A DNA stretch of 64,000 bases from an uncultured virus (IMG/VR IMGVR_UViG_3300000116_000008) (Duplodnaviria; Heunggongvirae; Uroviricota; Caudoviricetes). Both the position numbers and the translations under genes were made by a program. Where the stretch lies: the IMG/VR virus record IMGVR_UViG_3300000116_000008; one strand, written 5' to 3'. The notes beneath the pieces were generated by a model. The model was given only the letters and a program-made list of their open reading frames with translations. It was not told where the DNA came from and did not search any database. Positions 3,323 to 34,435 of the stretch are shown here, piece by piece. The stretch's first letter is position 1. Every line of letters begins with the position of its first letter.

Positions 3323-4615
3323 ATGGCATCTCTTAACCTACAGAGAAACTCAGAAGTGTTCTTTTCAACTGTTGATATACTTAACGGTGCAGCTATTACT
3401 GACTTGCGTCCAACTAATACTTGGAAACTTGAAGTGTTAGCAGGCTTCGCGGTAACATCATCAGCTGCTACACAAGACATCACTTCATTGGAATCTGGTA
3501 CAGACCCAGACAGATCACAACAGCGATTTAATACAGCTATTAACCCTGTTGACTGGAACTTCCAAACATATTTAAGACCGACCGGTGTACTAACAGGTGC
3601 AGCTGGTGGCACAACTACCGCAGCTACTAATCAGACAGGTAATGTAAAACCGACTGCTGACTGGTTCATGTGGCAATCAATGGTATCTAATACTAAAGTA
3701 GTAGCGACAGATGCTGATGGTTTGCACGAACGTTCTGTTTGGGAAACTGGAGGCAAACTTCGTACAACTACTGTCGCAAAAGGTACAGGATCAAGCGCAA
3801 CTAAGTCTAACTTCTCAGCAGCAGTAGAAAATCATATATACTTTAAACTGGATAACGTTATCTATCAAGTATCTAACGCTACAGTAAATCAAGCCACAGT
3901 TGACGCAGGAATAGAAGAAATTGCTACAACTACATGGGCAGGATTCGGTACAACTATGAAAGAAATTACAGGCAGTGCGCGTAATGTTGCTATCTCAGTT
4001 TTTGGAGGAATTTTAAATAATGGTTCAACCATTACAGCTAATTCTAATTTCCAAAAAATGAGTGCCTCTGCTACTGAAGCAGCTGCTTATCACCCATATA
4101 ATCAGATGAACGTAGCCGGATCAGCAAGTACTAACTCATTTATCAAAAATCGTTTAAGTACAATTGAATTTCATCACAAAGCAACTGCAGGAGGATCAGA
4201 CGAGAAGTTTGTTTTTCCAGTAACTGCATTAAGTTTTGATTATAATAACAATATTACATATTTGACACCAGAAGAGATCTCTGCTCTTAATGAGCCGATT
4301 GGTCAGTTTACTGGTTCAAGAGCTATAACAGGTTCTGCAACTATGTATTTAAGAACTGGTGACTTAGAATCAGCTGGTTTCTTAAGAAATATATCAGAAG
4401 ATTCAAGAACTAACTCTGCACAAACATCTAATGCTAATTTAATTATTGGTGGCACAACAGCCCCATATGTAGCATTTCAATTAGATGCGTGTCAGTTTGA
4501 GTTCCCACAAGTTGCTACTGATGATGTTATATCAATGTCAGTAAACTTTGTTGGACAAGAGCCGACTGCTACTAAAGGCGATGGCGGAGAAGTAACTATC
4601 TTTGCTGCAAAATAA
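3323..4615 (+). CDS. major tail tube protein (T5 pb6-like)
   Basis: LNLQRNSEVFFST..RFNTAINPVDWNFQTYLRP resembles the pb6 N-terminus; strong SD AAGGAG. Confidence 0.8.
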   Translation: MASLNLQRNSEVFFSTVDILNGAAITDLRPTNTWKLEVLAGFAVTSSAATQDITSLESGTDPDRSQQRFNTAINPVDWNFQTYLRPTGVLTGAAGGTTTAATNQTGNVKPTADWFMWQSMVSNTKVVATDADGLHERSVWETGGKLRTTTVAKGTGSSATKSNFSAAVENHIYFKLDNVIYQVSNATVNQATVDAGIEEIATTTWAGFGTTMKEITGSARNVAISVFGGILNNGSTITANSNFQKMSASATEAAAYHPYNQMNVAGSASTNSFIKNRLSTIEFHHKATAGGSDEKFVFPVTALSFDYNNNITYLTPEEISALNEPIGQFTGSRAITGSATMYLRTGDLESAGFLRNISEDSRTNSAQTSNANLIIGGTTAPYVAFQLDACQFEFPQVATDDVISMSVNFVGQEPTATKGDGGEVTIFAAK

Positions 4616-11227: not shown

Positions 11228-12804
11228 TGACAGCAAGAAATTATGATGTAGTAATCAAAGTAGCCAATGCCTCGTCTTTTGAGATGAATAACGTACTTAT
11301 TGGAAATACGTCGGCTGCAATAGGCACCATTGCTAACGTTAACGCTACCACTAACATTTTAAAAGTAAAATTATCTAATTCTATATTAGAGTTTTCTAAC
11401 TTAGAAGTTGTTCACTCTAATGTTATTTCTGTAACAGGTACAGCTAATGGATTATTAGATACTACTTCTTTACCTTTTCAAGCTAATACATACGCGGGTA
11501 ATGTAACAACTGCTATATCTACGATACAAACTATAGGACCAAGCGGTTTTATTGCTGAGAAGAATGCTTTTACACAAAATCCTATTGTTCGTCTATATGA
11601 AATATACTACCCAGGCGAGTGGTACCCAGAAAACGCAGCAGGTAATCCAACAGGTAAAGGTGAGGGTAGAGCTTGGCCTGTAGACTTTCCTATCAGATTT
11701 GCAGATATTCGTGGTGATTTAATTTCTGACTTGAACTATAATGTATCTTATAGTGGTGACACATTTATTCCTTTCCCTTCACAAATTTCTTCTATTGAAC
11801 AGTCTAGCGATGGTAAAATTAATGAACTATCTTTAACTGTGTTTAATGTTGACAATATAATTTCAGCTTTAATAGAAGATCCTTTTTTAGTCGGTAATAA
11901 CACCTCTAATGCGTGTCAGGCATTTGTTAATGGTGAGTTAGTTCACGGTATTGACCCCAGAACGATAAATGCAGCTCCAAGTGCCTTTGGGTCAGCAGGG
12001 ACTGAAGGATTCGACGTATTAACTCGTGCTAGAGCAAATGGTTTAGCTTTTAGTGCCGATGTCACTAATGGGGTGTATGGAAAAGCTAATTCATCTTTTA
12101 CTAGAGATCAAACTATTTCTATAGGTGGAGAGTGGAAAGAAGAAAAGTCAGATACCCGAGACTTACTAGGTGGTGTAGTATCTATTAAAACCACTTTTGC
12201 TAATTTTTTAGACTATTGGCCTGAATATAGCACTGCTAGATTTGTTACTTCTAATGTAGTTGAAGTTTATAACGCACTTCCTTATAGAGTTGGAGATAAT
12301 GTTCGTTCCGAAAACGGTACGACAGAAGGCACAATAGAATCAATTGAAGAAAATCGTTTTTTATACTTATCAAACCCGTTAGACTCTGACTTAGCAGTTG
12401 GTGATGCAGTTTTTATAATAAACTCTGAGGCAGATTCTGAATCTTACATAGAAGATAAATTTAAGATTGACAGTTTAGAGTCTTTAAATGACGAAGTCGC
12501 TGCTTTTAGTCTAATATCATGGCTCCAATATTTTAGAAATCAAATACCTAATAGAAAATACTATAAAAATACTTGTCAATGGTCTTACAAAGGACCTGAG
12601 TGTCAGTACCCTGGACCTGGAAACTTAGCCATACCAGGCACATCATTAACCTCAAATGCAAATCCTATTTCTGCGGACAATACAACAGCAGGATCTGCTG
12701 CTGGAGATGTTTGTGGAAAGTCATTACAAGCGTGCACTATACGTAATAATCAAATTCATTTTGGAGGCTTCCCTGCAACAGGACGAACAGTACCAAAACA
12801 ATAA
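11227..12804 (+). CDS. tail tip protein, lambda gpL-like
   Basis: C-terminal CQWSYKGPECQY..CGKSLQAC..FGGFP four-Cys motif. Confidence 0.8.
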   Translation: MTARNYDVVIKVANASSFEMNNVLIGNTSAAIGTIANVNATTNILKVKLSNSILEFSNLEVVHSNVISVTGTANGLLDTTSLPFQANTYAGNVTTAISTIQTIGPSGFIAEKNAFTQNPIVRLYEIYYPGEWYPENAAGNPTGKGEGRAWPVDFPIRFADIRGDLISDLNYNVSYSGDTFIPFPSQISSIEQSSDGKINELSLTVFNVDNIISALIEDPFLVGNNTSNACQAFVNGELVHGIDPRTINAAPSAFGSAGTEGFDVLTRARANGLAFSADVTNGVYGKANSSFTRDQTISIGGEWKEEKSDTRDLLGGVVSIKTTFANFLDYWPEYSTARFVTSNVVEVYNALPYRVGDNVRSENGTTEGTIESIEENRFLYLSNPLDSDLAVGDAVFIINSEADSESYIEDKFKIDSLESLNDEVAAFSLISWLQYFRNQIPNRKYYKNTCQWSYKGPECQYPGPGNLAIPGTSLTSNANPISADNTTAGSAAGDVCGKSLQACTIRNNQIHFGGFPATGRTVPKQ

Positions 12805-13978
12805 ATCAATTTGTATTTTACCCTGGATGCACCAATATGGCGACATAGCGGGGTCTTATGCCCTTTGTTGTTTTTCAATATTTCAATCAAATAATAATAG
12901 TTTTGGTAAAGGCCTAGCACCTTTGCAGGCATTTAATCACGAGTTTATGAAGTCTACCAGACTAGCTATGCTTAAAGACGAAAAAGTCTCTGCATGTAAT
13001 GTCTGTTATGATTGGGAAAAAAACGGCATTGAAAGTCCTCGACAAAAAATGAACATACGTTTTAAAGATTATAAACAATTATTTAATAAAACGGATAAAG
13101 ACGGATCAGTAACCAATCCTCCGATGTATATTGACTTTAGATTCGGTAATTTATGTAATTTTAAATGTAGAATGTGTGGTTCCTATGCTTCATCGTCATG
13201 GGCTAAAGAAGCTAAATTTCACGGAATGATGAAACAGACTGCCCCTAATCACTATGACTATTGGACTGATAACGAGGATTTTTGGAAAGATATTGATTAT
13301 ATAAAAAAATATATAAGAGAGATATATTTTGCTGGAGGCGAACCTTTTGTGCAGAAGGGCCATTACAAACTACTAGAATTTTTATCTGATAATAACTGCA
13401 CGAATATTCATTTAACTTATAATACAAACTTATCATACGACGGTAAGTTTAAAAGTTACCAAATAGAGGAATTATGGGAAAAATTTAAAAAAGTTTCTTT
13501 ATGGCCTAGCATTGAAGGCTATAAGGCTCATGCTGAGTATGGTAGAACTGGGTTAGAATGGTCGCTATTTGAAAAAAATGTTGATAGGTTTTCAAAGTAT
13601 ATTTCAGATTTTTCATTAGCTGGTAGTGTATACTCTATTACCTCTAATCTTGAACTAATACTTTGGATAAAAAGTAAAGGTAAATCTTTTAATATAACAA
13701 ATGTCGTACAACCTGCGTTTCAATCTACTACTGTTTTCGATCTAAAAACAAAAAAAGATATTATGACAAAGTATAGAAACTTATTAAAAAAATATCAAAA
13801 TGTGTTAAGTAAATATGAACTATCAATAATACTAGACTCTTTAAAACATATGATGTCAAAAGATGATAGTCACTTAGCAAAAGAGTTTAAAGAGTATAAC
13901 GTAAAACTTGACCTATATAGAAATGAGTCTTTTGAAAGTGTATATGGAGAATTAGCAGAATGGTACAAAAATATTTAG
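12656..13978 (+). CDS. radical SAM protein with N-terminal SPASM/twitch-like domain (true start uncertain, near 12773)
   Basis: CILPWMH..CC..CNVC followed by CNFKCRMC, FAGGEP and YNTN motifs. Confidence 0.85.
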   Translation: MQILFLRTIQQQDLLLEMFVESHYKRALYVIIKFILEASLQQDEQYQNNKSICILPWMHQYGDIAGSYALCCFSIFQSNNNSFGKGLAPLQAFNHEFMKSTRLAMLKDEKVSACNVCYDWEKNGIESPRQKMNIRFKDYKQLFNKTDKDGSVTNPPMYIDFRFGNLCNFKCRMCGSYASSSWAKEAKFHGMMKQTAPNHYDYWTDNEDFWKDIDYIKKYIREIYFAGGEPFVQKGHYKLLEFLSDNNCTNIHLTYNTNLSYDGKFKSYQIEELWEKFKKVSLWPSIEGYKAHAEYGRTGLEWSLFEKNVDRFSKYISDFSLAGSVYSITSNLELILWIKSKGKSFNITNVVQPAFQSTTVFDLKTKKDIMTKYRNLLKKYQNVLSKYELSIILDSLKHMMSKDDSHLAKEFKEYNVKLDLYRNESFESVYGELAEWYKNI

Positions 13979-23530: not shown

Positions 23531-24904
23531 ATGTCATTAACAAGAATTACATCAGGAGTTGTTGGTGCTAATGCTATTTCTACAGAGAAACTAGCAAACG
23601 GTGCTATTACTTCAAGACACATAGCAAATACATCTATTGAATTAAAGCACTTAGGTTCTTCCGCTAATCAAGTTGCTGGAATTAATACGATAACAGCTAA
23701 TGTTAACACTGTTCAAGCTAATCTTAATATTGTTCAAGCTAATGTTAATGCACAGACAACAAATGTTAATATAGTTTCCGCTAATGTGGGTAACACAGTT
23801 GCTTTTACAGCTAATGTTGAGGCTAGACGTGTCGCTAATATTGCTGGTGCCATAAGCACTGTTCTTACTGGTGATTTAACGGTGTCAAGAGCTTTAGTAT
23901 CTTCTGGAAGCGGTAAAATCGCAGTATCAGCAGTTAGTGCAACAGAACTTGCTCATTTAGACGGCGTATCTTCAGCTATTCAAACACAGTTAAATGCTGT
24001 TGAGGCTAGAAGAGCTGCAAATAATATTGCTACCACTTTCACTGATGATGTTATTGTTACAGGTAACTTGATTGTTAACGGAGACACTACTACTGCAAAT
24101 TCCATAAATATGGTTGTCCAAGACCGTATGCTTATGTTAGCTAATTCAGCTACGGGCGCACCAGCTGCTGACGTTGGGTTACTTTTCAACAGAGGTAACC
24201 AAGGTAACGCTGCAATTTTCTATGATGAATCAGCAAAAACATTTAAATTAAGTGACACAAAAGACCCTTCAAGTAACACTTCTTTATCCCCTGTTACTGC
24301 GTCTAACTTAGATGTCGGCATTGTCACTGCTGCTACTTTAAACGCTACTGCTATAACACAAAATGGTGCTACTTTAGATAATTTAATAGGGTCTAATGTT
24401 TCTGGAGCTATATCAACTGTAAAATCTACTGATTTAACTGCTTCACGTGCATTAGCATCAAGTGGTTCTGGTAAGATAGAAGTAAGTGCCGTCACAGCTA
24501 CTGAATTAGGATACTTAGGTGGAGTAACAGGAGCTATCCAAACTCAGCTAGATGCTAAAGAATCAATCGCGGCATCTGCAGCTAATGACTTTATTACTTT
24601 TACTAGGTTAAACGCTAATATTAATGTTGTGTCAGGTAACGTTGCATTAGGTTTAACTCAAAAAACAAATGTCATTACAAGTGGCGGAGCAAATACTTTT
24701 CACATAGCAACCCCTCCTGCTAGTAATCCTACTACTATATCTAATGTTCAGGTGTTCATTGATGGTTTAGTACAAAAACCAAAAACAACAAGTAGTGATA
24801 ACGATTATATATACACTGCAGGAAGCGGATTAGTAACAATTACTGATGCTTCTTTACCGTCAGGATTGGCCATTCAAATTACTGCTCTATACCCGCCTTC
24901 CTAA
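23531..24904 (+). CDS. tail fibre-like structural protein with internal duplication
   Basis: ANVN heptads, duplicated GAISTV..ATEL..LxGVxxAIQTQL unit, VTGNLIVNGDTTT motif. Confidence 0.7.
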   Translation: MSLTRITSGVVGANAISTEKLANGAITSRHIANTSIELKHLGSSANQVAGINTITANVNTVQANLNIVQANVNAQTTNVNIVSANVGNTVAFTANVEARRVANIAGAISTVLTGDLTVSRALVSSGSGKIAVSAVSATELAHLDGVSSAIQTQLNAVEARRAANNIATTFTDDVIVTGNLIVNGDTTTANSINMVVQDRMLMLANSATGAPAADVGLLFNRGNQGNAAIFYDESAKTFKLSDTKDPSSNTSLSPVTASNLDVGIVTAATLNATAITQNGATLDNLIGSNVSGAISTVKSTDLTASRALASSGSGKIEVSAVTATELGYLGGVTGAIQTQLDAKESIAASAANDFITFTRLNANINVVSGNVALGLTQKTNVITSGGANTFHIATPPASNPTTISNVQVFIDGLVQKPKTTSSDNDYIYTAGSGLVTITDASLPSGLAIQITALYPPS

Positions 24905-25899
24905 TGCGACCTATCAGACAACTCACCACAGAATTAACTTTTAGATGCAATGCAAAATGTCCTGCGTGCCATCGTCAAAAGCCTTTATCAGTGGATTTAA
25001 ATGCAAAAAAACATACAATATCCCTAGATAACTTTAAAAAACTATTTTACCCTGAATTACTAAAAAAGATGGAATGGCTAGTTCTTAACGGTAATTTTGG
25101 CGATTCCATAATGAATAAACAATTTAGAGATATCATTTCATATGTCAAAGAGCATGATACTAGAATATTAATTCATACTAATGGAGGTATCCATAATCAT
25201 GACTATTGGACTGACGTTGGTAATATTTTAACAGATAAAGACATTATAAATTTTGATTTAGATGGTTTAGAAGACACCCACCATATTTATCGTATAAACA
25301 CTAAATTTGAAAAGGTTTTTAGTAACGCAAAGTCTATTATAGCTACTAACAGGCCTCAAGTTCATTGGAAATATATTGTATTTGAACATAATAAACATCA
25401 GGTTGAAAAAGCAAGAAAATTAGCAAATGATAATGGATTTACTACTTTTTCAACAGTTAAAACATCAAGAGATGTTTTTGCACCCTCTACAGGTAAGTTT
25501 GTTCATTCAAAAAAGACCTCTGCTTATAAACAAGCACGAAGAGAAATTCATTGTGTTTGGGATAATTGGGGTAAATGGTATGTTTCTCCTGAAGGTCTTG
25601 TGTTTAGATGTTGTTGGACGGGAGGACACTACTACGATCAAGGTGAAAAACGTTTTTATTACCCTCCTAAGTTTGAACGTATGTTTAACGGATTTCATGT
25701 TCCCATCGAAAAAATTATAAGTTATGATTATTGGAATAAATTAAGAAATTTTTTAGACGGTTATGAACGATCATTTTCTTTATGTAAATCATCTTGTGGT
25801 AAAATAGTTTCTTCAATAGAAAAGACAGAAGAAAACTTAATAACAGGAGAAACTGTAGTATTCGACTCTAAAAGCAAGGAGACTTCTCGTGTCAGCTAA
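24904..25899 (+). CDS. radical SAM protein with C-terminal Cys-rich (SPASM/twitch-like) domain
   Basis: CNAKCPAC, HTNGG, C..CC..CKSSC. Confidence 0.85.
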   Translation: MRPIRQLTTELTFRCNAKCPACHRQKPLSVDLNAKKHTISLDNFKKLFYPELLKKMEWLVLNGNFGDSIMNKQFRDIISYVKEHDTRILIHTNGGIHNHDYWTDVGNILTDKDIINFDLDGLEDTHHIYRINTKFEKVFSNAKSIIATNRPQVHWKYIVFEHNKHQVEKARKLANDNGFTTFSTVKTSRDVFAPSTGKFVHSKKTSAYKQARREIHCVWDNWGKWYVSPEGLVFRCCWTGGHYYDQGEKRFYYPPKFERMFNGFHVPIEKIISYDYWNKLRNFLDGYERSFSLCKSSCGKIVSSIEKTEENLITGETVVFDSKSKETSRVS

Positions 25900-26092
25900 A
25901 ATAGTGAGCAAAGTAGGAAAATTTAAATTTTTAAGATTCCCTAATCGGGGTATTCGCAGAAATGAACGAATTAGAAAACTTGCCACACGCCGAAAATTAA
26001 GTTATTCTACAATTGAAAAATTAATAAATAAAGAACGTGGTTTAGGTTACCCTATAAAGTATTCTAAACCGATTGGCTTTAAAAAAAACTAA
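25889..26092 (+). CDS. small Lys/Arg-rich protein
   Basis: GTG start after SD AAGGAG; 67 aa, strongly basic. Confidence 0.65.
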   Translation: MSAKIVSKVGKFKFLRFPNRGIRRNERIRKLATRRKLSYSTIEKLINKERGLGYPIKYSKPIGFKKN

Positions 26093-26140
26093 CGTTCATC
26101 TCACAAGAGACGGAAGTAGGTTTATAAACCGAAGGAACGC
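26093..26140 (+). ncRNA. glnA-class (glutamine-I) riboswitch aptamer
   Basis: CGTTC-P2(TCTC/ACAA/GAGA)-CGGAAGTA-P3(GGTT/TATA/AACC)-GAAG-GAACGC: three-way junction with AGUA/GAA E-loop, matching the glnA motif consensus as I recall it. Confidence 0.88.
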
Positions 26141-26165
26141 ACTTAACTGTAACAGGGAGAGTGTT

Positions 26166-26417
26166 ATGACAAATATAATCGAAACTAAGTTTGGTACTTT
26201 AGTTAATACAAAAAAGATAGCAGCAGGAAGTGCCTCTAGCATAAAAAAATCTGGAGCATTTTATAACTTCTCTATCAGAGTAACAAATGACGACATAAGA
26301 GAATACTCATTTACAGATCTTGCAAGAGCTGAATATATGAGAAGAATTATGATCGGTCATTTAGAAGAAAAAATTAAAAAGGAATCAAAGAGTATTCCTA
26401 AAACTACTGTGGCATAA
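26166..26417 (+). CDS. hypothetical 83-aa protein downstream of the riboswitch (start corrected from 26073)
   Basis: ATG 26166 after SD GGGAG 26155-26159; MTNIIETKFGTLVN... Confidence 0.75.
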   Translation: MTNIIETKFGTLVNTKKIAAGSASSIKKSGAFYNFSIRVTNDDIREYSFTDLARAEYMRRIMIGHLEEKIKKESKSIPKTTVA

Positions 26418-26459
26418 AAAATAGATTTTCAAAAGACCCACGTTTATAAGGAATCTAAC

Positions 26460-26801
26460 ATGAAAAATAATAAAGATGGTCATACTGACGTTGCTTCTGC
26501 TAGAAGGCAGTGCGCAAATATAATCGAAGATTGTCAGGATATGCTGAAGGCTTTACCTGATGATAGCGAAGCTTCACTACCTACGTGGTGGACTAACAAA
26601 CTTGCTGTATCAGCTGCTTATATTAATTCTGATAGAGATTACTTAGTTTATACTATGCAACAAAATTCTGAAGAAGAAACCTCTGAAGAGCCTGTTGTAG
26701 TTGATGATGATCAGCGAATGACAATAAATTTTACAGTAGATGAAGATGATATGACACCTCCATCTGCTAAAATGGTTAAAGAAACAGATAATGCCTCTTA
26801 A
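26460..26801 (+). CDS. hypothetical phage protein
   Basis: ORF with SD AAGGA; DGHTDVASA..LPTWWTNKL; acidic C-terminus. Confidence 0.65.
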   Translation: MKNNKDGHTDVASARRQCANIIEDCQDMLKALPDDSEASLPTWWTNKLAVSAAYINSDRDYLVYTMQQNSEEETSEEPVVVDDDQRMTINFTVDEDDMTPPSAKMVKETDNAS

Positions 26802-26994
26802 AAAAGGTAAATCTCAAAAAACCATTTCAACAAATATAAAAGAGCTTATGAAAAACCCCTCTAAAGCTCGTTCTAAGGGTATCGGTACTCTTGCTAAAAA
26901 ACAAGGTATCACACGTAAACAGGCTCACCGTCGTCAAGCAGTTGCAATCGCACTTAGAGCGGCAGGTAAACCTCGTATAAAACGTAAAAAATAA
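26791..26994 (+). CDS. small Lys/Arg-rich protein
   Basis: MPLKKGKSQKTISTNIKEL..QAVAIAL, a common small phage protein pattern. Confidence 0.7.
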   Translation: MPLKKGKSQKTISTNIKELMKNPSKARSKGIGTLAKKQGITRKQAHRRQAVAIALRAAGKPRIKRKK

Positions 26995-26997
26995 ATT

Positions 26998-27026
26998 TTG
27001 ACACATAATTGATTATCTGTGAAAAT
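26998..27026 (+). promoter_or_regulatory. putative sigma70-type promoter
   Basis: TTGACA-17 nt-(TGn)GAAAAT in the intergenic gap. Confidence 0.45.
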
Positions 27027-27059
27027 ATACTATAAATAATCTTTCTAAGGAGAAGAACT

Positions 27060-27707
27060 ATGGCATTAGTCTATAACATCGGTGGCCCTAACTCAAACTT
27101 TTCAACAATTGCAGAAATTGATTCTACAACTTTGACTCAGGGCGATAACACAATACAAATATACCCAGGTACTCACGCAGCCCCAACTTCTATTACTGCT
27201 TCTAACATTGCTTTTAAAGGCATGGGAGATCGCGACGACGTAATTATTGATGGTGCAGCTGGAGCAGCGCTTGGCGTCACTTTAAGTGATAGTTGCTCAG
27301 GCACAATTACTTTCGAAAACTTAACAATTAAAGGACAAGATAACGTACTTACTGGAAATCCAGCAGGTGCTAACGCTGCTATTACTAAATCAGGTAATGA
27401 CGACGTAAAACTTGTTTTCCGTAACTGTAAGTTCACTAACGCAGAACATGCTGTTATTCATAACGGTATTCATGCTAACGCGCTTGGCGTAAACCAAGTT
27501 GAAATGCATTATTGTCAAGCTGACGTGGATAAAGCAATCGTTTCAAATTCAAACGTATTTGCAACATATTCACTTTTTGGTGCAAACGCATATCATACAG
27601 CAGCAGGAGCTGCAACTCCATCAACAGCTATTAAAACAATGTTGTGTGGACCAAACACTGCAAACGTTGGTAACTCAACTGAAACAATACTTGCAACAAT
27701 TGCATAA
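27060..27707 (+). CDS. pectin-lyase-like beta-helix protein
   Basis: FSTIAE..TIQIYPGT..ITFENLTI..FRNCKF pattern; SD AAGGAG. Confidence 0.6.
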   Translation: MALVYNIGGPNSNFSTIAEIDSTTLTQGDNTIQIYPGTHAAPTSITASNIAFKGMGDRDDVIIDGAAGAALGVTLSDSCSGTITFENLTIKGQDNVLTGNPAGANAAITKSGNDDVKLVFRNCKFTNAEHAVIHNGIHANALGVNQVEMHYCQADVDKAIVSNSNVFATYSLFGANAYHTAAGAATPSTAIKTMLCGPNTANVGNSTETILATIA

Positions 27708-27734
27708 TAATAATTCTATTTAAGGAGAAAAATC

Positions 27735-28067
27735 ATGGCTATGATTAATAAAAAAGCAAAACAGCCAATGGAGCAAAAAGCTAGTTATGCTAAAGTCAGT
27801 GACGCAGCTGGTGGCGGAACACAAAGAACTGGTTTTACAGGTTCAAGCGACCCACGTGGAGCTGGAATGCTAGGTCAAACTAAAATGCTTAAAGATGCAA
27901 AAGGTTATATTGACCAAGGTCCAGATACTATGGATACTTCTGGCGATGCTAGAGGCTTTGTCTCTGGTGGTCCAAAGTCTGCTGGTAGCGCAGGTGGTAT
28001 GGTTAGCCCAGCCAAAGAAAACGTTACATCAGGAATGGGTGGAAAAGTCATTAAGGATATGAAGTAA
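27735..28067 (+). CDS. Gly/Met-rich low-complexity hypothetical protein
   Basis: SD AAGGAG; 110 aa. Confidence 0.65.
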   Translation: MAMINKKAKQPMEQKASYAKVSDAAGGGTQRTGFTGSSDPRGAGMLGQTKMLKDAKGYIDQGPDTMDTSGDARGFVSGGPKSAGSAGGMVSPAKENVTSGMGGKVIKDMK

Positions 28068-28268
28068 ATGGCTAGAACCTCATTTGGAAGTGGAATCGGA
28101 GAAGGTAAAGTAGAGACTATTGGCGATAACCGTTATGGTCTTCGTGAAACCTATGATGATGCTGAAATGAAAAAAACTAAAGAGCATTATCGTAAAGGTG
28201 ACACTTTAACTATCAAAGAAGTTAAAAACCCTCTTCTACAAACTGTTAAAACAGTAAAGGCAAAATGA
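28068..28268 (+). CDS. hypothetical protein
   Basis: Starts immediately after the upstream stop; 66 aa. Confidence 0.6.
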   Translation: MARTSFGSGIGEGKVETIGDNRYGLRETYDDAEMKKTKEHYRKGDTLTIKEVKNPLLQTVKTVKAK

Positions 28269-28360
28269 GTATTGCTCCTGACGTATTTAAACGCTCAATG
28301 CCTAAATACAAAAAACGAGCTAAGAAAAAGAATCGTAAAGTTACGAAAAAGAAGAAATAA
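28265..28360 (+). CDS. 31-aa very basic peptide (not in ORF track)
   Basis: ATGA overlap with the upstream stop; MSIAPDVFKRSMPKYKKRAKKKNRKVTKKKK. Confidence 0.6.
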   Translation: MSIAPDVFKRSMPKYKKRAKKKNRKVTKKKK

Positions 28361-28895
28361 GATTACGTAACCAGGTTTTATCATAAGGCGCACAGATATT
28401 AACTTGCGCCTTACTCGTTTTTATAATCTTTTCAATTATTTTTTTACTATCTACATCTACAGAAATAAATACCAAATCATCAATTCCTAACCAGGAATAA
28501 TCATAATCAATTGCATTAGTATTTACAATTTTAATCTTATCCTTACACGGACTTGCTGCTATCAATTTTTTGCTGATTACGCATCTGTTTTTATCAATTT
28601 CAATTCCTATTTGATAAATATTAGGATACTGTCTATGAACATCAAACATTGAATAAGGGTACATACCACTACCTATCAACACTAAATTTTTACATGAATC
28701 AAATTTGTATCTCTGCTTTTTATCTCTTAATGTTCTGATAATCCAAGCATTTTTTTCTGCTAAATCGTACGGTTTACTATAGTCCTTACTTTTAAGGCAA
28801 CTTTTTAAAAGAGCTATTTCGTTCTGGGCGACAAGATTCTTCCAAATTACTTCATCTTTTTTAACATCATCCATTGTGTATTTTTTTAATGACAT
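28341..28895 (-). CDS. nicotianamine-synthase/CntL-like SAM-dependent enzyme
   Basis: LVLIGSGMYPYS..GIEID motif resembles NAS FIGSGPLPLT. Confidence 0.55.
   Translation of the reverse strand: MSLKKYTMDDVKKDEVIWKNLVAQNEIALLKSCLKSKDYSKPYDLAEKNAWIIRTLRDKKQRYKFDSCKNLVLIGSGMYPYSMFDVHRQYPNIYQIGIEIDKNRCVISKKLIAASPCKDKIKIVNTNAIDYDYSWLGIDDLVFISVDVDSKKIIEKIIKTSKAQVNICAPYDKTWLRNLISSFS
28384..28422 (+). terminator. putative terminator of the late transcript, embedded in the convergent gene
   Basis: TAAGGCGCA/TGCGCCTTA 9-bp stem followed by CTCGTTTTT, at the strand switch. Confidence 0.4.
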
Positions 28896-34363: not shown

Positions 34364-34435
34364 TGGAGGAGCTGGGGGATTCGAACCTCCATCTCCAGAG
34401 TAAATCTGGCGCATTCCCAAAATGCTACTAGCCCC
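34364..34435 (-). tRNA. atypical tRNA-Ala-like gene / pseudo-tRNA with 5-nt anticodon loop
   Basis: GGGGCT/AGCTCC acceptor with G3.U, D-arm GCAT/ATGC, CCAGA-TTTAC-TCTGG arm, GGTTCGAATCC T-loop, encoded CCA. Confidence 0.7.

Follow-up and report, generated by a model that had tools for sequence, protein, structure and literature searches.

A type-1 glutamine riboswitch in the leader of a SAR116-type gene carried by a distant T5-like phage

Introduction

Weinberg et al. (2010) report the glutamine motif in cyanobacteria and marine metagenomes, tandem copies included. The type-1 switch of Synechocystis sp. PCC 6803 gifB activates expression as glutamine rises, according to Klahn et al. (2018; PMC6212724), who draw on the crystal structures in Ren et al. 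(2015) to propose a helix between the ribosome binding site (RBS) and the C that follows P1 with its adjoining bases; glutamine binding would melt this helix. In the account of a 2024 review (PMC11477058), a junction G is inserted into P1 in a ligand-dependent manner and pairs with that C to form a 'linchpin'; the pair, G23-C60, is described there and in PMC6212724. Phage copies are reported by Buchholz et al. (2022; PMC9004378) for Methylophilales phage Melnitz, Pelagibacter phage Mosig and a Prochlorococcus phage, together with 10 pelagimyophage MAVGs and 5 GOV2 contigs.

Here we describe such an element in a 64,000-nucleotide stretch of DNA from an uncultured virus (IMG/VR IMGVR_UViG_3300000116_000008), hereafter the window. 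Its leader resembles that of gifB (IF17) in Rfam family, three-way junction and linchpin C and, as far as the platform is set out in PMC6212724, also in having post-P1 bases that pair with the RBS in a helix that glutamine would melt to turn expression on. The two differ in carrier, a cyanobacterium versus a phage, and in cargo, which in the window is an 83-aa protein without DUF4278/IF17. A preliminary description of the window had implied that a phage-borne glutamine switch was a novelty. This must be withdrawn in view of the 2022 publication (PMC9004378) and of our pattern scan of IMG/VR for the aptamer core, by which at least 120 stretches carry the motif; both the riboswitch class and its presence in phages are already known, and no new RNA class is presented here. 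What is new is the T5-like siphovirus setting, which extends phage glutamine riboswitches beyond T4-like myophages, the host-derived cargo, the history of the locus as an insertion hot spot with a remnant of older cargo, and the comparative backing for the anti-RBS helix. A literature search that reached a minority of subscription journals returned nothing relevant on the switch in SAR116 bacteria, in siphoviruses or with the 83-aa cargo.

Results and discussion

A complete type-1 aptamer with covariation support

An Rfam cmscan of the whole 64-kb window gave two matches only, one of which was the type-1 glutamine riboswitch, RF01739 (Table 1). This match reached 62.1 bits against a gathering score of 35 (E 2.5e-11), covered model positions 1-53 of 53 and is far above chance level. 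The preliminary description had proposed a glnA-class glutamine riboswitch at this place and suggested the Rfam glnA covariance model as a check. The match bears the proposal out, and P1, P2, P3, the junction, the GAAG segment and C26140 all lie where they had been placed, by direct reading as well as by RF01739. The element also begins right behind the stop of the upstream ORF, as had been said: the stop codon TAA occupies 26090-26092 and the aptamer runs from 26091 (model match) or 26093 (P1). Its supposed place at the end of a virion operon does not hold, since small plus-strand ORFs run on to 28268.

Table 1. Features of the riboswitch locus in the window
Feature	Position	Strand	Basis
Conserved 67-aa gene, left cassette flank, stop TAA 26090-26092	25889..26092	+	ORF list; relatives
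Spurious N-terminal extension from TTG 26073	26073..26165	+	ORF list; relatives start at ATG 26166
Aptamer, type-1 glutamine riboswitch	26091..26143	+	Rfam RF01739, full model
P1 enclosing P2, junction, P3 and GAAG	26093..26139	+	direct sequence reading
P1, CGUUC/GAACG	26093-26097/26135-26139
P2, UCUC/GAGA, ACAA loop	26099-26102/26107-26110
Junction, CGGAAGUA	26111-26118
P3, GGUU/AACC, UAUA loop	26119-26122/26127-26130
GAAG, between P3 and the P1 3' strand	26131-26134
'Linchpin' C, directly after P1; also first base of the anti-SD helix	26140	+	nearly invariant alignment column
Predicted SD-sequestering hairpin	26140..26163	+	MFE folds, -6.1 kcal/mol; covariation
Anti-SD helix, CACUU/GAGUG	26140-26144/26159-26163
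Shine-Dalgarno (SD) region GGGAGAG	26155..26161	+	sequence reading; kept in the leaders
Controlled gene, 83-aa protein	26166..26417	+	284 relatives; AF2 pLDDT 86.4; 83 bacterial relatives; tree
Non-coding remnant, 3' end of older 49-aa peptide cargo; cassette right end	26418..26459	+	L266 match
113-aa 'KDGHTDVAS' gene, right cassette flank	26460..26801	+	follows the 67-aa gene directly in most relatives

The conserved junction CGGAAGUA, the GAAG and the 3' linchpin C are all present in the window copy. We assembled 108 distinct leaders (aptamer through start codon) from the IMG/VR scan, Melnitz and the loci of the relatives of the 83-aa gene. In the alignment of these 108 distinct phage copies, the window copy conforms to every one of the 20 invariant and 6 nearly invariant columns. 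P1 is paired in 100%, P2 in 99.7% and the first P3 pair in 99.1%, and changes on both sides were found for 3/3 P2 pairs counted and for 5/9 aptamer pairs counted. The covariation score was reached by 0/500 shuffles, and sliding the partners against each other brought pairing to 29-59%. Covariation among the phage copies thus backs the P1/P2/P3 three-way junction of the RF01739 class to which the window copy belongs. By covariance-model score and covariation, we regard the element as a bona fide glnA-class (type-1) glutamine riboswitch; that the window RNA binds glutamine is a probable consequence, by analogy with the class.

A predicted helix joined to P1 covers the ribosome binding site

The aptamer sits in the 5' leader of the 83-aa gene (26091-26165), with a predicted RBS-occluding helix joined to P1. 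The hairpin is present in the MFE folds of the window; its 5' strand, made of the five bases after P1, is paired with the spacer and the 3' half of the SD region, and inner pairs reach G26155-G26156. The distance from P1 to the start codon is 26 nt, which is also the median over 95 distinct leaders. Across the 108 leaders, the anti-SD helix is paired in 72% of alignment cells and unpaired in 28%. One of its pairs (alignment positions 73-121) is C-G in 37 and U-A in 32 of the leaders; another is C-G in 58, U-A in 5 and A-U in 2. Between P1 and the ATG, the leaders fold more stably than their shuffles (mean z -2.17), with z below -1 in 80/108. More than 100 natural leaders hence give covariation support for an anti-RBS helix that was merely postulated for gifB. 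Roughly one leader in four departs from this helix. Some of these make up a second platform class, CACCAAUACC...GUAAAGGAGCA, in which the alignment of leaders gave no anti-SD helix of this type. A different pairing, with the P2 5' strand as the anti-SD, was discarded, as a P2 of GGC/GCC, present in some copies, is unable to pair with GGAG.

The ORF list extends the controlled gene over the switch from TTG 26073 and so hides the element, as the preliminary description had remarked. This extension is an artefact, because the relatives (284, bacterial ones included) start at the Met of ATG 26166, which on this comparison is the true start of the gene.

Scanning 25600-28500 for promoters gave weak sigma-70-like sites only. 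A TAAATA box, which we take to resemble the T4-type late promoter box, lies at most 22 nt upstream of 70 of the 115 distinct first-copy aptamers (IMG/VR loci L002-L121), mostly 6 nt before P1, against a background of 70 in 3600 random 22-mers. No such box stands upstream of the window's aptamer.

Instead of translation of the downstream ORF, an RNA of this kind might affect transcription, the stability of the RNA or the gene upstream. The Melnitz copy is described as controlling an upstream tmRNA (Buchholz et al., 2022; PMC9004378), and the aptamer of the window adjoins the upstream stop codon. We nevertheless consider such action very improbable here: the scan of 25600-28500 gave no terminator-like element between the aptamer and the ATG or nearby, P1 is followed by the start codon after only 26 nt, and SD and ATG are kept together with the aptamer across many unrelated cargos, among them an unannotated 32-aa ORF of Melnitz itself.

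The arrangement favours a translational ON switch

The anti-SD helix begins with C26140, the linchpin itself, and because of this double role we read the element as a translational ON switch. At low glutamine, the hairpin formed by 26140-26144 and 26159-26163 would hide the RBS. Once glutamine is bound, a junction G (26112 or 26113) would enter the base of P1 and pair with C26140, and this would take away the first pair of the hairpin. The RBS would then be free and the 83-aa protein translated. The anti-SD helix alone is weak, at -1.9 kcal/mol for its five pairs.

The same junction between P1 and hairpin could in principle work in the opposite sense, with glutamine stabilising P1, the hairpin stacking on it and the RBS being hidden at high glutamine. 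Such an OFF switch keeps some weight because P1 and the hairpin adjoin without a spacer and the nearest-neighbour energy model favours their coexistence, through a stacking gain, at -11.5 versus -9.1 kcal/mol. Against it, C26140 is unable to pair with the junction G and with G26163 at once, and the sole in vivo data for the class, obtained with the same P1-adjacent anti-RBS layout and given in PMC6212724, are of activation by glutamine. We judge an OFF switch unlikely, and by analogy with gifB the window switch would be of the ON type.

With a start codon 26 nt away and a helix that would occlude the RBS, control by the phage of one of its own genes in response to the glutamine pool, as the preliminary description had it, is therefore the best reading. 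The purpose of the translational ON switch would be to have the host-derived 83-aa protein made solely in nitrogen-replete cells; what benefit the protein brings under the switch is a matter of conjecture. Taken as a whole, the account of a glutamine aptamer and an anti-SD helix that together form a translational ON switch of the 83-aa gene, on an inserted cassette of ~370 nt with SAR116-type cargo, seems to us probable.

The switch and its gene lie on a cassette inserted at a hot spot

The 67-aa protein encoded just upstream has 143 relatives at E <= 0.001, the best 120 of which are 66-100% identical to it. Its gene was found in 67 viral loci, and 64 of these have enough downstream DNA for the neighbourhood to be tested. 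The 'KDGHTDVAS' gene directly follows the 67-aa gene in 53/64 loci. A glutamine-riboswitch cassette separates the two genes in 3/64, namely the window's twin with the 83-aa gene, and L266 and L267 with a 49-aa peptide. Another five (L270, L283, L285, L298 and L304) hold a different insert of ~555 nt without the switch, and in 3/64 the 'KDGHTDVAS' gene was not found within 700 nt of the 67-aa gene. Because five related contigs carry another insert there, the junction after the 67-aa gene is an insertion hot spot. Judged by these gene orders, the riboswitch and the 83-aa gene are a cassette of ~370 nt inserted between otherwise adjoining genes of a conserved operon.

The right end of the cassette holds a trace of earlier cargo. 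The 45 nt after the 83-aa stop (26418-26462) agree with the 3' end of the L266 cassette at 37/45 positions, a level reached by 0/300 shuffles; the remnant reads KNRFSKDPRL and a stop, and L266 reads KNILSNDPRLQGI and a stop. The 83-aa gene therefore replaced an older 49-aa peptide behind the same leader.

Properties of the 83-aa protein

The confident AlphaFold (AF2) model of the 83-aa protein (pLDDT 86.4) shows a small beta sheet and, at the C-terminus, a long helix. The protein belongs to no Pfam family, has no DUF4278/IF17 domain, and among PHROGs it finds a weak match only (E 0.0041). It has no match among 50,697 GenBank phage records, falls in the Atlas into its own viral 'hypothetical' clusters only, and in Foldseek searches of PDB and BFVD gave nothing at E <= 0.001; in a wide VIA-align search the best Z was 5.0, inside the tool's stated noise. 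Weak matches of residues 15-58 to the repeats of giant SdrD_B/DUF11 proteins were taken as a beta-strand pattern and not as homology. A relationship to the gp33-like late-transcription coactivator that follows the Melnitz switch was rejected, as BLASTP gave no alignment. A tie to a DUF4278/IF17-like or nitrogen gene, which is typical of the class without defining it, was not found for the window cargo, nor was anything linking it to glutamine synthetase.

In some other viral cassettes, YRG-motif peptides stand behind the switch. In L039 (697-873, -) such a cargo scores 30.5 bits with Pfam DUF4278, the domain of IF17 (cut-off 25.3), and in L007 (736-870, -) another gives a weak DUF4278 match of 19.9 bits. 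Many other viral cassette cargos are unrelated basic peptides of 17-65 aa.

The cargo is a chromosomal gene of SAR116-type bacteria

A scan of one genome per prokaryote species gave 83 bacterial relatives of the 83-aa protein, mostly from the SAR116 cluster (Puniceispirillales) and from other marine Alphaproteobacteria; the top ones are 92-95% identical in the aligned part. Four SAR116-type genomes share the chromosomal order polA, ABC ATPase, GIY-YIG protein, 114-aa ORF and 83-aa gene; in one genome the 114-aa ORF and the GIY-YIG frame are fused. No prophage or nitrogen genes were found near the 83-aa gene in these four genomes. From these relatives and their gene order we conclude that the cargo stems from SAR116-type Alphaproteobacteria, whose chromosomes carry it as a small gene.

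The switch is absent upstream of the bacterial gene in all loci inspected (0/80), and the gene there has its own promoter-like leader. Among 57 viral loci with the 83-aa gene, six carry the strict motif and one (L124) a divergent copy with a compensatory P1 change; the other 50 lack the switch, and their copy of the gene stands in a structural module with a coding gene immediately before it. An Rfam spot check found RF01739 in 7/7 expected loci and in 0/11 sampled switch-less loci. The preliminary description had held that the motif should persist in close relatives that keep the gene. This is so for the closest relative (G001, a 29.8-kb viral contig), which has the same switch with the same score, but not for the wider set of 50/57 viral and 80/80 bacterial loci; this distribution argues that the switch is a modular addition, not a spurious element. 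Some of the switch-less phages with the 83-aa gene carry Mu-gpT-DE RNA (RF03012, 67-68 bits), at 105-158 in L143, 1285-1338 in L147 and 1276-1329 in L153.

Is the aptamer then a mere passenger, which arrived with the cassette and now regulates nothing in phage or host? The riboswitch-gene unit is indeed an insertion, most copies of the gene (50/57 viral and 80/80 bacterial) do without the switch, and the window copy lacks both a promoter of its own and a TAAATA box. Yet every invariant position is intact and the score is as high as that of other copies; in the switch-linked gene copies the P2 and P3 sequences differ while pairing is kept, and L124 has the compensatory change in P1. Unselected sequence does decay at this locus, since a decayed remnant adjoins the switch unit. 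A passenger appears quite improbable to us, and the kept pairing suggests selection on the switch after its fusion to the gene.

We also built a quick maximum-likelihood tree of the gene from 95 distinct nucleotide rows and 237 columns, leaving out 20 short, partial or N-containing bacterial loci. A branch with SH-aLRT 89, which is below the 95 mark, sets the switch-linked copies apart, next to the chromosomal copy of Ca. Levibacter; the switch-less viral copies form a separate clade (97), and both viral groups lie inside the SAR116-type rows. The tree fits two captures from SAR116-type bacteria; in one of them the gene would have joined a riboswitch leader a single time and later passed between T4-like and T5-like phages. 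Because the 83-aa gene is short, this history stays a lead.

Pieces of the phage turned up in contigs of four metatranscriptome runs. These are short exact matches to 25765-25915, 26309-26475, 26513-26663 and 26593-26800, which may be DNA carry-over, and the same runs hold pieces of other cassettes that share 26130-26169. No piece in the contigs of these four runs bridges the switch and the 83-aa gene.

Related leaders in Melnitz and in a SAR116-type chromosome

Melnitz gave the only blastn match to the window leader among 50,697 phage records, the two being 83-84% identical from inside the aptamer to the ATG. Both are phage-borne and share the same CACUUAAC...GGGAGAGUGUUAUG platform. They differ in setting: Melnitz and the pelagimyophages are T4-like myophages whose switch is said, in PMC9004378, to control an upstream ssrA, whereas the window belongs to a marine T5-like siphovirus and has its switch between two genes without a late-promoter box. 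The cargo also differs, an 83-aa host-derived gene in the window versus a peptide of ~32 aa in Melnitz. The Melnitz record (L001, MZ577097) annotates the switch, at 3986-4150, inside 'SsrA'. In its sequence the same platform for anti-SD pairing recurs together with an SD and an ATG, and behind these comes the unannotated 32-aa ORF on the plus strand; the annotated gene at this place lies on the opposite strand. L042 and L077 have related peptides behind their switch.

RF01739 was found in 2/5 SAR116-type genomes tested, as tandem copies. The Ca. Levibacter chromosome (L261), of the lineage from which the window cargo stems, has the same aptamer class and the same anti-SD platform, in the form CACCU/AGGUG. 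It differs from the window, with its single aptamer and 83-aa gene, in having a tandem glutamine riboswitch (1358-1611, -) before a 38-aa basic peptide (MTYRPYQW...), the family of which also stands behind the switch in viral contigs L005, L017, L028 and L109. The switch class is thus at home in the SAR116-type lineage, and glutamine sensing in such a putative host is therefore plausible.

One could go further and view the leader as a portable, promoter-independent module that unrelated marine phages, T4-like and T5-like, swap to capture cargo, by which a small SAR116 protein was rewired to host nitrogen status. We offer this tentatively, as a possibility on the doubtful side. Were it true, the 83-aa protein would regulate host physiology in a way so far unrecognised, and be of use to the phage in glutamine-replete cells only. 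The locus offers a concrete history, with an insertion hot spot, the replacement of cargo, of which a decayed remnant is left, and the capture of a bacterial gene under a metabolite sensor; the documented insertion, replacement and capture therefore make the switch-plus-cargo unit a tractable model of phage accessory genes tied to the nitrogen state of the host. The very conserved 83-aa SAR116 protein merits characterisation.

The window derives from a distant T5-like siphovirus

PHROG matches place in the window a siphovirus tail module with a major tail protein, a 1360-aa tape measure and a 2001-aa J-like central fibre. The replication module holds a family A polymerase (PolA), an NAD-dependent ligase, SbcCD, RNR and a DnaB-like helicase. 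The best 15 matches listed for the polymerase are all from T5-like coliphages or Salmonella phages, at ~40% identity over 94-95%. The assignment to a T5-like phage in the preliminary description agrees with the long non-contractile tail module and with this polymerase, read from a 64-kb fragment; with its nearest T5-like phages at ~40% identity, 'T5-like' is fair as a distant relationship.

Two minor features of the window may be added. Rfam gave a weak tRNA at 34368-34434 (-), with 33.3 bits and acceptor-stem mismatches, and ARAGORN found no tRNA in the window. Two radical-SAM-like proteins are encoded in the tail/tail-fibre block, at 12656-13978 and 24904-25899 (+), with PHROG E-values of 1.8e-08 and 2.4e-28, respectively.
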